From a virus (taxonomy: Duplodnaviria > Heunggongvirae > Uroviricota > Caudoviricetes), in IMG/VR virus record IMGVR_UViG_2703718849_000001, positions 1 to 6,274 of that record: DNA of 6,274 nucleotides; one strand, 5' to 3'. Both the position numbers and the translations under genes were made by a program. The notes under the pieces were generated by a model. The model was not told the DNA's origin and did no database searches. It saw only the letters and a program-made list of their open reading frames with translations. Shown here one piece after another: positions 4,592 to 6,274 of this stretch (its first letter is position 1; each line of letters opens with the position of its first letter).

Positions 4592-4710
4592 AACGCCTCC
4601 AGTTGTTTCTTTGCTGCTCTGATTAATTGTTTAACTCGGCGTGATAATTCAGATTCGTGCGGGTAGAAAGCGGACATGACGCCGCTACCCGCGAGCTGAA
4701 AGTGCATCAT
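4576..4710 (-). CDS. cIII: CIII-like FtsH inhibitor peptide (44 aa)
   Basis: Hand translation gives MMHFQLAGSGVMSAFYPHESELSRRVKQLIRAAKKQLEALCAMK. GGAG lies 6 nt upstream of the ATG at 4710. The N-terminus and the central amphipathic helix ESELSRRVKQLIR align with lambda CIII (MQYAIAG...ESLLERITRKLRD, from memory). Confidence 0.6.
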   Translation of the reverse strand: MMHFQLAGSGVMSAFYPHESELSRRVKQLIRAAKKQLEALCAMK

Positions 4711-4740
4711 GGGTAACTCCTTATATTTGATTGCATAACG

Positions 4741-4765
4741 AAAACGCCTCAAGTGAAGCGTTATT
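4741..4765 (-). terminator. Hairpin plus U-tract, terminator candidate (minus strand) between ea10 and cIII
   Basis: Minus-strand RNA forms an 8-bp stem AACGCUUC / GAGGCGUU (one G-U wobble), loop ACUU, followed by UUCGUUAU. The plus-strand RNA would have a mismatch instead, so the structure is strand-specific. Confidence 0.35.
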
Positions 4766-4785
4766 GGTATGCGGTAAAGCCGCGC

Positions 4786-5154
4786 TCAGGCGGCTTTGAT
4801 AGTCATATCATCTGAATCAAATATTCCTGATGTATCGATATCGGTAATTCTTATTCCTTCACTACCATCCATTGGAGGCCATCCTTCCTGACCATTTCCA
4901 TCATCCCAGTCGAACTCACAAACAACACCATATGCATTTAAGTCTTTCGAAATTGCTATAAGCAGAGCATGTTGCGCCAGCATGATTAATACAGCATTTA
5001 ATACAGCGCCGTGTTTATTGAGTCGGTATTCAGAGTCTGACCAGAAATTATTAATCTGGTGAAGTTTTTCCTCTGTCATTACGTCATGGTCGATTTCAAT
5101 TTCTATTGATGCTTTCCAGTCGTAATCAATGATGTATTTTTTGATGTTTGACAT
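4786..5154 (-). CDS. ea10: Ea10-like early-left protein (122 aa)
   Basis: ATG at 5154..5152 with GAGGA SD at 9-nt spacing; 122 aa, the size and position of lambda Ea10 between ral and cIII. Sequence identity to Ea10 is recollection only. Confidence 0.6.
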   Translation of the reverse strand: MSNIKKYIIDYDWKASIEIEIDHDVMTEEKLHQINNFWSDSEYRLNKHGAVLNAVLIMLAQHALLIAISKDLNAYGVVCEFDWDDGNGQEGWPPMDGSEGIRITDIDTSGIFDSDDMTIKAA

Positions 5155-5171
5155 CTATTCATATCCTCATA

Positions 5172-5200
5172 GATAAAAAATCGCCCTCACACTGGAGGGC
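5172..5200 (-). terminator. Rho-independent terminator candidate (minus strand) upstream of ea10
   Basis: Minus-strand stem GCCCUC / GAGGGC (plus 5183-5188 / 5195-5200), 6-nt loop, followed by GAUUUUUUAUCU. The plus-strand downstream flank is A/G-rich, so it is orientation-specific. Confidence 0.5.
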
Positions 5201-5295
5201 AAAGAAGATTTCCAATAATCAGAACAAGTCGGCTCCTGTTTAGTTACGAGCGACATTGCTCCGTGTATTCACTCGTTGGAATGAATACACAGTGC

Positions 5296-5508
5296 TTATT
5301 CGCGAGCTTTGAGCATGGCATCAGCAATAAAGTAGGCATCATCTGCTAATTCTTTGTACTGTGGTGAATTCTGTCCACCGCCAAAGGAATGTCCGTCCCA
5401 TCTGCGCACTATTGCTGCCATAGCCTTAGCAGCGAAGTAATCACGTAATGTCGCATCACTTGCCATTTCTGGGCGTTTGATATCTGCTTCATAAAACTCG
5501 CACATCAT
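5296..5508 (-). CDS. Hypothetical protein (70 aa)
   Basis: Tandem ATG ATG at 5508..5503 preceded by GGAGGTGA; the first ATG overlaps the TGA of the upstream 44-aa ORF (ATGA). No family recognised. Confidence 0.6.
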   Translation of the reverse strand: MMCEFYEADIKRPEMASDATLRDYFAAKAMAAIVRRWDGHSFGGGQNSPQYKELADDAYFIADAMLKARE

Positions 5509-5639
5509 TCACCTCCAAGAGCATTTGCAGCCTCTTTTGCTTTGTGAATCCATAGCAGAGCCATGCAGTACACAGCCTTTTCGTCGGCTCCTGTGATATC
5601 TTGCTCTGCCATCCATTTTGTAAATTCAACTGTGTTCAT
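5505..5639 (-). CDS. Small hypothetical protein (44 aa), below the ORF-track cutoff
   Basis: Hand translation gives MNTVEFTKWMAEQDITGADEKAVYCMALLWIHKAKEAANALGGE. ATG at 5639..5637 with GAGGTGA just upstream; TGA overlaps the start of the 70-aa gene. Confidence 0.45.
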   Translation of the reverse strand: MNTVEFTKWMAEQDITGADEKAVYCMALLWIHKAKEAANALGGE

Positions 5640-5660
5640 ATTCACCTCTGTTGTTTATGC

Positions 5661-5688
5661 CAAAAATAAAGGCCACCATCAGGCAGCC
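5661..5688 (-). terminator. Rho-independent terminator candidate (minus strand) immediately after ral
   Basis: Minus-strand RNA: GGCUGCC-UGAU-GGUGGCC (7 bp including two G-U wobbles) followed by UUUAUUUUUGG. The ral TGA (5681..5679) sits in the loop. The plus-strand RNA would have C-A mismatches. Confidence 0.5.
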
Positions 5689-5879
5689 TTGTTATTCTGT
5701 TTACCAAGTTCTCTGGCAATCATTGCCGTCGTTCGTATTGCCCATTTATCGACATATTTCCCATCTTCCATTACATGAAACATTTCTTCAGGCTTAACCA
5801 TGCATTCCGATTGCAGCTTGCATCCATTGCATCGCTTGAATTGTCCACACCATTGATTTGTATCAATAGTCGTAGTCAT
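5679..5879 (-). CDS. ral: Restriction-alleviation protein Ral (66 aa)
   Basis: MTTTIDTNQWCGQFKRCNGCKLQSECMVKPEEMFHVMEDGKYVDKWAIRTTAMIARELGKQNNKAA is near-identical to lambda Ral as I recall it, and of the same length. ATG at 5879..5877. Confidence 0.85.
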   Translation of the reverse strand: MTTTIDTNQWCGQFKRCNGCKLQSECMVKPEEMFHVMEDGKYVDKWAIRTTAMIARELGKQNNKAA

Positions 5880-5949
5880 ACGGATAGTCCTGGTATTGTT
5901 CCATCACATCCTGAGGATGCTCTTCGAACTCTTCAAATTCTTCTTCCAT
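5863..5949 (-). CDS. Orf28-like acidic peptide (28 aa) overlapping the ral start
   Basis: Hand translation gives MEEEFEEFEEHPQDVMEQYQDYPYDYDY. ATG at 5949..5947 with GAGGTGA upstream; TGA at 5865..5863, overlapping ral by 17 nt. This matches the lambda orf28/ral arrangement as I remember it. Confidence 0.35.
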   Translation of the reverse strand: MEEEFEEFEEHPQDVMEQYQDYPYDYDY

Positions 5950-5957
5950 ATCTCACC

Positions 5958-6274
5958 TCAAATAAGTGGTTTGCTGCCTAATTTCATTTTCTGGCGACCA
6001 ACACAAGTCACCCCCATTTCACTGCGTGGCTTGCTGTACCATGTGCGCTGATTCTTGCGCTCAATACGTTGCAGGTTGCTTTCAATCTGTTCGTGGTATT
6101 CAGCCAGCACTGTAAGGTCTATCGGATTCAGTGCGCTTTCTACTCGTGATTTCGGTTTGCGATTCAGCGAGAGAATAGGGCGGTTAACTGGTTTTGCGCT
6201 TACCCCAACCAACAGGGGATTTGCTGCTTTCCATTGAGCCTGTTTCTCTGCGCGACGTTCGCGGCGGCGTGTTT
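5958..6274 (-). CDS. N: Antitermination protein N (5' end truncated by the window edge; about 4 codons missing)
   Basis: The minus-strand frame is open from 6272 down to the stop at 5960..5958: TRRRERRAEKQAQWKAANPLLVGVSAKPVNRPILSLNRKPKSRVESALNPIDLTVLAEYHEQIESNLQRIERKNQRTWYSKP...PLI. The arginine-rich motif and most of the sequence match lambda N (MDAQTRRRERRAEKQAQWKAANPLL...); the C-terminal roughly 25 residues diverge. The track's TTG start at 6212 is an artefact. Confidence 0.9.
   Translation of the reverse strand, partial: TRRRERRAEKQAQWKAANPLLVGVSAKPVNRPILSLNRKPKSRVESALNPIDLTVLAEYHEQIESNLQRIERKNQRTWYSKPRSEMGVTCVGRQKMKLGSKPLI

Follow-up and report, generated by a model that had tools for sequence, protein, structure and literature searches.

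Several small proteins encoded in the early-left (pL) operon of lambdoid phages act on the host: Ral, Kil, CIII and Gam (Abc2 in P22-like phages) have as targets type I restriction-modification, FtsZ, FtsH and RecBCD, respectively. Lambdoid genomes are mosaics, in which, according to the Hendrix/Juhala/Clark model, segments are exchanged at conserved gene-boundary sequences, and they also carry "morons", which in the classic case bring their own promoter and terminator along and are expressed by the prophage.

A small RNA has also been described within this operon. LPR1/PreS is an Hfq-bound sRNA of the lytic cycle, of about 88 nt and processed to about 68 nt, which lies between ea10 and ral, has the terminator tL2a as its 3' end and up-regulates host dnaN (bioRxiv 10.1101/2024.10.31.621285). 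In this work, we analyzed two small genes located between ral and PreS in a stretch of viral DNA of 6,274 nt, referred to below as the window. Both are already present in databases as "hypothetical protein" entries and as PHROG families 24660 and 2201; what our analysis adds is the definition of the slot that they occupy, the combinatorics of its two positions, its location next to PreS and the extent of the superfamily that one of these genes belongs to.

Results

Genetic setting and insertion relative to lambda

All relevant genes lie on the minus strand, and the ORF map corresponds to a lambdoid early-left operon with the order N (C-terminus), an orf28-like mini-ORF, ral, two small ORFs (genes A and B), ea10, cIII/kil-like genes, erf and further genes. 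The best overall matches were the mosaic P22-like/lambdoid phages Sf6 and HK633, with about 51% coverage and 96-98% identity; none of the records compared covered 80% or more of the window. The features of the region are the following:

5958-6212, minus strand: ORF corresponding to the C-terminal part of N (ORF map)
5679-5879, minus strand: ral, 66 aa, upstream neighbour, outside the insertion (Pfam PF11058 Ral, E 7.5e-48; phrog_1055; aligns to lambda ral)
5654-5690, minus strand: left boundary, consisting of a terminator-like hairpin that overlaps the ral stop (stem 5669-5690), a T-run and the linker TTTTTGGCATAAA (5654-5666) (terminator scan; lambda backbone)
5296-5646 (351 bp), minus strand: cargo segment without lambda counterpart, which holds both genes and the ribosome-binding site of gene A (breakpoints from blastn comparisons with lambda, phage 21 and 2G7b; seven slot states aligned)
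5505-5639, minus strand: gene A (A44), 44 aa (ATG at 5639; phrog_24660; third-position bias)
5296-5508, minus strand: gene B (B70), 70 aa from the first ATG (5506-5508) or 69 aa from the second (5503-5505) (phrog_2201 match)
5261-5292, minus strand: right boundary, a 14-bp hairpin without T-run located directly after the gene B stop (5296) and ending at the PreS start (RNA fold)
5174-5261, minus strand: PreS/LPR1 sRNA, 88 nt, with the terminator tL2a as 3' end (stem 5181-5202, T-run 5174-5180) (primers; lambda identity; terminator scan)
4786-5154, minus strand: ea10, 122 aa, downstream neighbour, outside the insertion (Pfam PF10800 (DUF2528), E 4e-46; phrog_646)

A plus-strand ORF at 5563-5778 and the alternative-frame ORFs within gene A were dismissed, as they either run across the slot boundary or match database entries that are themselves mis-called proteins (P0134-P0136).

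In blastn comparisons with lambda (NC_001416), window positions 4708-5295 and 5647-5974 align to segments that lie just 9-10 bp apart. The 351 bp between them thus constitute an insertion relative to lambda, standing in place of about 10 bp of the latter, and the ral-ea10 gap measures 524 bp in the window vs 182 bp in lambda. In NC_001416, the empty slot falls at about 34046-34054. A preliminary description of this DNA had proposed precisely this, namely that lambda has a short gap between ral and ea10 and that two small genes adjoining ral have been inserted there; the lambda slot is indeed empty, the insertion lies where it had been placed, and the ORF map together with the Pfam Ral match of the neighbouring gene confirms the position of the two genes.

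The slot is flanked by resident structures

The preliminary description also regarded the pair as bracketed by terminators. Hairpins do exist on both sides (5690-5669 and 5202-5181), and the terminator scan detected three terminator-like hairpins in the region vs 0.9 expected from shuffles; nevertheless, both bracketing structures belong to flanks homologous to lambda, which has them although it lacks the insert. On the left, the boundary reads as the hairpin at the ral stop, the T-run and the linker GGCATAAACAACAG (5654-5690), with a predicted folding energy of -16.8 kcal/mol (z -3.0). The linker is found in lambda and upstream of every cargo type, and the hairpin stems differ behind other upstream genes. 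On the right, the hairpin following gene B is predicted to fold with -21.7 kcal/mol (z -6.9), none of 200 shuffles being as good, and is 100% identical to its lambda counterpart; the same full identity holds for the stretch of 125 nt that begins at the gene B stop and includes PreS. At least 120 IMG/VR contigs contain, as an exact match, a 37-nt anchor that overlaps this hairpin.

The ends of PreS were placed on the window by means of the cloning and in-vitro-transcription primers P1103/P1104 and P810 (GAGCAATGTCGCTCGTAACT ... CCTCCAGTGTGAGGGCGATTTTTTA) listed in the supplement of bioRxiv 10.1101/2024.10.31.621285. Since they locate the sRNA at 5174-5261, the "terminator before ea10" can be identified by its sequence as tL2a/PreS, i.e. 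as resident lambda backbone. An Rfam scan of positions 4700-6274 gave no match, PreS being absent from Rfam.

Gene A

Gene A is preceded by the ribosome-binding site GAGGTGA (5642-5648), whose GAGG (5645-5648) is separated from the ATG by a 5-nt spacer; a GTG at 5645, listed by the ORF tool, falls inside this Shine-Dalgarno sequence. The protein matches the phrog_24660 profile end to end (E 3.2e-33, residues 1-44 on positions 1-44 of 44), and PGAP annotates it in E. coli as WP_021538742.1. Its relatives form a small group of only 19 protein clusters. Homologues of A44 from a Cronobacter prophage, from a prophage of metagenomic origin and from KKP 3828, a lytic Salmonella phage, differ from it mostly at third codon positions (3/2/19, 8/5/21 and 11/8/26 at positions 1/2/3 for the three homologues). 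This bias against distant homologues indicates that A44 is a real gene, under purifying selection across 64-81% nucleotide identity. The AF2 model (pLDDT 86.9) consists of two helices, 3-11 and 20-40, joined by an invariant QDITGAD loop.

Gene B

The gene A stop codon (5505-5507) overlaps the first gene B ATG (5506-5508) as ATGA, the overlap that the preliminary description had taken as a sign of translational coupling. We consider that the second ATG is probably the true start, resulting in a 69-aa protein and in a 1-nt overlap of the form TGATG, because (i) the GGAGG at 5512-5516, which lies within the last codons of gene A, is better spaced from the second ATG (6 nt) than from the first one (3 nt), (ii) the first codon is GTG in E. 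coli FJ_Ec_21, in 19AR1321 and in most IMG/VR relatives, the second ATG being the only start retained, and (iii) the 69-aa form is called more often, on 728 contigs vs 268 that encode a protein identical to the 70-aa form. To judge from the overlaps, the genes are stop/start coupled with either start, so that the coupling stands while the ATGA is probably not the overlap in use.

A single word-indexed search retrieved at least 427 proteins related to B, and a profile built from 15 relatives reached, at E<=1e-3, the representatives of 13,686 clusters defined at 50% identity. The match of B to phrog_2201 (E 1.2e-19) covers only the C-terminal part of the profile, positions 156-215 of 226. In B70, conservation is concentrated in (L)RDYFAAKAM, which lies in the first helix, and in AYxIADAMLKAR, which lies in the second, and the protein contains the two-helix family pattern (L/M)RD(Y/W)FAAxAM plus AYxxADAMLxAR, the residues R22 D23 F25 A26 A29 M30 ... 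A62 D63 A64 M65 L66 A68 R69 being invariant. The N-terminal GGPAFP motif that is typical of the wider family was not found in the window protein, which starts MMCEFYEADIKRPEMASDAT. These motifs place the window protein in a variant subfamily of a GGPAFP-RDYFAAxAM-ADAMLxAR superfamily, and the many relatives retrieved indicate that B70 is a real gene. Its AF2 model (pLDDT 71.6) is a helical hairpin with helices at 21-36 and 49-69 and a disordered N-terminus. Members of the subfamily from Escherichia, Citrobacter, Enterobacter, Salmonella and Cronobacter all have the same loop, VRRWDGHSFGGG..SPQYKEL; in B67 and B61, the sister alleles, entirely different loops are found between ends identical to those of B70. 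The wider family includes tandem-duplicated units (P0158, P0238, P0284) and N-terminal fusions.

Two candidate relationships of B were rejected. A weak match to phrog_30599, "transcriptional regulator" (E 1e-4), was not accepted, no HTH or DNA-binding domain being detectable. The idea that the long position-1 proteins described below and B are the halves of a fused protein, P0221 (237 aa), was also dropped: BLASTP revealed no similarity between P0221 and the 92-aa protein of Bas106, and P0221 did not match phrog_1273.

Independent exchange of the genes at two positions

The slot survey was based on the IMG/VR contigs, at least 120, that carry the exact 37-nt hairpin/PreS anchor; 86 of those listed also carry the left linker. 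Among the matches listed, the slot is empty in 72 of these 86 contigs, with the same 21-nt spacing as in lambda, and contains a cargo of 226, 342 or 495-516 nt in the remaining 14. Seven slot states were aligned:

Lambda: empty
2G7b: one 65-aa gene
Window: A44 + B70
E. coli 19AR1321: A44 + B67
FJ_Ec_21: A44 (annotated with an N-terminal extension) + B69
Sf101: 83-aa protein + B67
Bas106: 92-aa protein + B70

Position 1 is thus occupied by A44 (phrog_24660) or by an unrelated protein of 83-98 aa (A-long; phrog_1273), and position 2 by B, in three loop variants of 70, 67 and 61 aa, or by an unrelated 62-aa protein (Y62; phrog_10407). All tested combinations occur, including A44 with Y62 (strain 222) and A-long with Y62. 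In 22 IMG/VR contigs, A44 is followed by the gene for the 62-aa protein in 12 cases, by that for a B variant in 7 (the third loop variant in 3) and by that for a DUF551-like, a DUF7167-like or another protein in the other 3.

Each gene is also found without the other. A44 occurs without B in Cronobacter and other prophages, where DUF551 or other genes come next, and in the lytic Autographiviridae Salmonella phage KKP 3828, where the homologue and the end of the gene before it overlap and a DnaB-like helicase (AAA_25/DnaB_C) is encoded directly downstream. In Salmonella, Enterobacter, Hafnia and Yersinia (pro)phages, homologues of B lie in the interval from N to cIII/kil, preceded by various genes, e.g. 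a PF27050-family protein in Salmonella prophages, and elsewhere without an abutting upstream gene. Upstream of the cargo, ral is present in a minority of the cargo-bearing loci, and at least 10 other genes take that place.

The joints between these parts are shared. Unrelated position-1 proteins have a common ..ALGGE tail, and the codons for it hold the GGAGG of gene B; as the ribosome-binding site of gene B is embedded there, the nucleotide sequence identifies the tail as a DNA-level joint, not a protein interface. Every two-gene cargo ends ...GAATAA/GCACTG, whatever gene fills position 2, and at the empty site the sequence is ACAG-AATAA-ACACT-GCACTG, perhaps what remains of a lost cargo. The preliminary description had treated A and B as a two-gene unit. 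Given that their partners reassort and that each occurs without the other, the sequences compared indicate that they are two independently exchangeable genes and do not form a fixed unit.

Prevalence

The flanks are matched by 340 phage records, among which B occupies this slot only in Bas106, Dewey and Sf101; among 50,697 phage records, tblastn located B in 13 and A44 in a single one. Among 5426 complete E. coli genomes, 2235 match the interval via the backbone, 39 contain the A44 DNA and 50 the shared N-terminal half of B, the full B70 allele being present in 8. The preliminary description had suggested a survey of the carriers of the pair; what emerged is a pair that reassorts: the one complete E. 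coli genome with both A44 and B70 is FJ_Ec_21 (96% identity), and the 22 A44-bearing IMG/VR contigs do not include a single case. No relatives of A44 were detected in 185,579 species-representative genomes (one per species). Among plasmids, B gave one weak match, in a non-mobilizable Enterobacter plasmid, by a single-sequence tblastn that would miss distant relatives.

Searches for function

Scans of A44 and B70 against Pfam, NCBIfam and PADLOC yielded no match at E<=1 and hence no toxin-antitoxin or defence family, and the same scans of the alternative slot alleles gave nothing; in PHROGs, all slot alleles fall in "unknown function" families. A profile search against PDB sequences gave no match below E 0.1. 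Foldseek with the B70 model returned a best E-value of 5 in the PDB, a two-helix hairpin being too simple a fold to inform. No similarity of A44 or B70 to anti-defence proteins (Ral, Ocr, ArdA, Acr and others) appeared in Pfam, PHROGs or PDB, and nothing relevant was found in the literature under the A and B motifs, the PHROG identifiers or the WP accessions. Upstream of gene A, a crude consensus scan found no sigma-70-like promoter. The only minus-strand match, a promoter-like site inside B (5377-5349), was rejected as chance level (2 found vs 3.3 expected).

Discussion

On balance, we lean towards regarding the segment as the cargo of a recombination slot, encoding two independent early accessory proteins that depend on N antitermination and that would each bind or modulate a host protein. 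The slot lies between the conserved left linker and the 14-bp hairpin preceding PreS, and the alleles at its two positions reassort independently, which would proceed via recombination in short conserved gene-boundary sequences, namely the ribosome-binding site plus the stop/start overlap and the shared GAATAA/GCACTG end. The arrangement around the cargo is that of delayed-early pL genes, with the same strand, a contiguous N ... ral ... ea10 ... cIII order, a location behind terminator-like structures and no intervening promoter. Owing to the lack of a promoter of their own and to this position, we would expect transcription of A and B only from pL under N antitermination, that is, during early lytic growth and not in the lysogen; translation would start from strong Shine-Dalgarno sites with stop/start coupling. 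In the absence of N, the A/B transcript would end at tL2a, so that PreS would form the 3' terminus of the gene B mRNA and no longer that of the ral mRNA.

As for the proteins, their size, timing and neighbourhood suggest that they probably bind host factors and, by analogy with Ral, Kil, CIII and Gam/Abc2, each would probably act alone as a stoichiometric binder. In the case of B, the conserved Ala-rich two-helix scaffold would probably pair into a four-helix bundle, presenting the exchangeable loop as a binding or specificity surface; the tandem-duplicated relatives of B favour such pairing. As all lambdoid arrangements retain the stop/start overlap, some functional coupling between positions 1 and 2 may nevertheless exist.

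As regards the target, position makes a host defence factor the leading single candidate, a tentative one. The preliminary description had gone further and seen an accessory cassette next to anti-restriction genes; the cassette does adjoin ral, although the anti-restriction or defence role was drawn from that position and finds no support in families, structures or papers. Put in general terms, one or both proteins might inhibit host immunity as anti-restriction or anti-defence effectors clustered with ral, their allele turnover reflecting an arms race. We regard this as possible, if doubtful. It fits the location right behind ral, within an early operon where anti-RecBCD genes are found too, the variable and patchy alleles (A44 in 39 and B in 50 of 5426 complete E. 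coli genomes), the swapping of the B loop between otherwise identical scaffolds, and the B homologue found two genes after an annotated anti-restriction protein in Salmonella phage 64795_sal3. The evidence, however, is positional, and even the position varies, with ral upstream in a minority of cargo-bearing loci and at least 10 other genes in its place. Besides, neither protein resembles the anti-defence proteins named in PHROGs, Pfam or PDB, their motifs do not appear in the text supplementary files of the accessory-gene screen of Silas et al. 2025, and the one plasmid record with B, from a single-sequence tblastn, lends no support from plasmid anti-defence leading regions. It is tempting to speculate that B70 represents a very large family of early proteins with a swappable loop targeting host immune or takeover factors, that A44 is a separate mini-inhibitor and that the ral-PreS slot is a mix-and-match counter-defence locus, an extension that we find rather unlikely as a whole.

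Other explanations depart further from two independent host-binding proteins. A phage-internal role in replication or recombination, with A44 as, for instance, a small helicase or replisome cofactor, would account for the KKP 3828 homologue directly upstream of a DnaB-like helicase, for the prophage neighbourhood of both genes, in which erf/recT, ssb and anti-RecBCD genes lie a few genes further downstream, and for the proximity of PreS, which boosts host DnaN. This role seems improbable to us, considering that it depends on a single lytic-phage context, that lambda and most relatives replicate and recombine with the slot empty, and that no nucleic-acid or replisome-related domain is found in either protein. 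The genes could also be dispensable passengers, either hitch-hiking ORFs or a segment with a cis effect on the stability of the PreS-bearing mRNA, in line with a slot that is empty in lambda and in 72 of the 86 contigs among the matches listed, and with alleles that all belong to "unknown function" families; we give this little credence in view of the purifying selection on A44 across 64-81% nucleotide identity, the B core and loop motif that are invariant across genera, and the retention of A44 in an unrelated lytic phage. Finally, two small genes whose stop/start overlap is preserved in every lambdoid arrangement might suggest a cognate module inserted as one unit, be it a toxin-antitoxin, an effector-immunity pair or an obligate heterodimer. 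Such a module is disfavoured and very improbable: the genes reassort freely with unrelated proteins and are each found without the other, no promoter or operator of their own was found, no toxin-antitoxin or defence family was matched, and the shared ..ALGGE tail is explained by the gene B ribosome-binding site.

Whatever the targets, the slot is sharply bounded within the best-studied phage operon and lambda represents its isogenic empty state, which makes knock-ins straightforward. Gene B is the entry to a huge family of early proteins without a Pfam model, so that one phenotype would annotate thousands of genes. Furthermore, PreS would be the 3' end of a different message in cargo-bearing phages, which may bear on its production.

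When compared with known systems, the cargo shares with type II toxin-antitoxin and Acr-Aca operons two very small adjacent genes, an overlapping stop/start and a mobile element, but it differs from them in having no promoter of its own, no HTH regulator and no family match, and in partners that do not co-vary. By these features it is neither a toxin-antitoxin module nor a member of a characterised anti-defence family. With the PreS/LPR1 locus it is contiguous, and the sRNA, tL2a and the upstream hairpin are 100% conserved in the window; whereas PreS is an RNA regulator of dnaN, the cargo consists of protein genes located 35 nt upstream. The small pL proteins Ral, Kil, CIII, Gam and Abc2 resemble A44 and B70 in operon, strand and timing, in tiny products (about 40-140 aa), and in being non-essential and found in some lambdoid phages but not in others, the cargo lying directly beside ral; they differ in that their host targets are known and that A44 and B70 have no sequence similarity to any of them. 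Compared with morons, the cargo has no detected promoter and no terminator of its own, both terminators lying in the lambda-homologous flanks, and to judge by these signals it is thus not a moron in the strict sense. Altogether, the cargo belongs among these non-essential small pL proteins, and its evolution matches lambdoid mosaicism, with genes present or absent between near-identical flanks, junctions at gene boundaries and short conserved linkers, and in itself the exchange of A and B appears, from the sequences compared, as an ordinary and routine instance of it.

Boundaries of the cargo slot

The empty slot reads ACAG-AATAA-ACACT-GCACTG (IMG/VR loci; lambda NC_001416, 34046-34054), and GAATAA|GCACTG stands at the 3' end of every two-gene cargo among the IMG/VR loci listed. 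The AATAA of the lambda slot may be the remnant of a lost cargo, so that its "empty" state could be a deletion and not the ancestral state.

On the left side, the terminator-like hairpin ahead of the linker TTTATTTTTGGCATAAA occurs with at least three distinct stem sequences (compared locus L001, 2140-2165, and IMG/VR loci), which vary with the upstream gene, be it ral or others. As the stems differ while the T-run and the linker stay constant whichever stem precedes them, the comparison of sequences suggests that the terminator-like structure itself is under selection. On the right side, the boundary is invariant and is formed by a very stable hairpin, next to which lies a small RNA:

5174-5261 (-), PreS/LPR1 sRNA with terminator tL2a; 100% identity to lambda
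5261-5292 (-), 14-bp hairpin without a T-run; RNA fold -21.7 kcal/mol, z -6.9

PreS/LPR1 is a recently described, Hfq-dependent sRNA that activates dnaN (bioRxiv 10.1101/2024.10.31.621285); a scan of window positions 4700-6274 matched no Rfam model to it. Directly 5' of PreS, the window phage carries gene B in place of ral. The 3' limit of the 14-bp hairpin coincides exactly with the PreS 5' end, and the hairpin may be an element for RNA processing or stability.

Genes of the cargo

Gene B probably starts at its second ATG (window 5503-5508 (-) region), giving 69 aa and a TGATG overlap, since just 3 nt separate the first ATG from the Shine-Dalgarno sequence, and several relatives have GTG in its place. 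The gene is internally mosaic: three alleles of 70, 67 and 61 aa (loci L146, L149 and L158; L002; window 5296-5508) are identical in their first ~28 and last ~9 residues, with unrelated inter-helix loops. At 50% identity, the superfamily defined by the B-type domain (GGPAFP ... RDYFAAxAM ... ADAMLxAR) comprises 13,686 clusters, with tandem-duplicated forms and fusions, e.g. to pentapeptide repeats, among its members; no Pfam model was found for it (sample proteins P0137-P0284).

For the 44-aa gene A, tblastn against 50,697 phage records returned a single homologue, in the lytic Salmonella phage KKP 3828 of the Autographiviridae (L009, 2501-2638). There its start lies within the end of a preceding 259-aa gene, a DnaB-like helicase gene follows immediately, and no B-type gene is found in its neighbourhood. 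Three related database proteins (P0134-P0136) were rejected as separate genes: they switch partway into alternative frames of the same DNA (window 5509-5616 and 5489-5629, (-)) and are frameshifted or mis-called ORFs.

Neighbouring genes

Another recurrent member of the slot's mosaic neighbourhood is a PF27050 (Phage_P22_Y8K6) protein, encoded in different prophages directly upstream of, and overlapping, a homologue of gene A or B (L137, 2196-2504; L138-L140, 2182-2508). In the window, sieB is absent (window 5975-6027 versus lambda 34382-35103): 53 bp stand in place of ~722 bp of lambda comprising sieB and the 3' end of N, and N consequently has a C-terminus (...SEMGVTCVGRQKMKLGSKPLI) different from that in lambda. 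Phage 21-like arrangements show the same.
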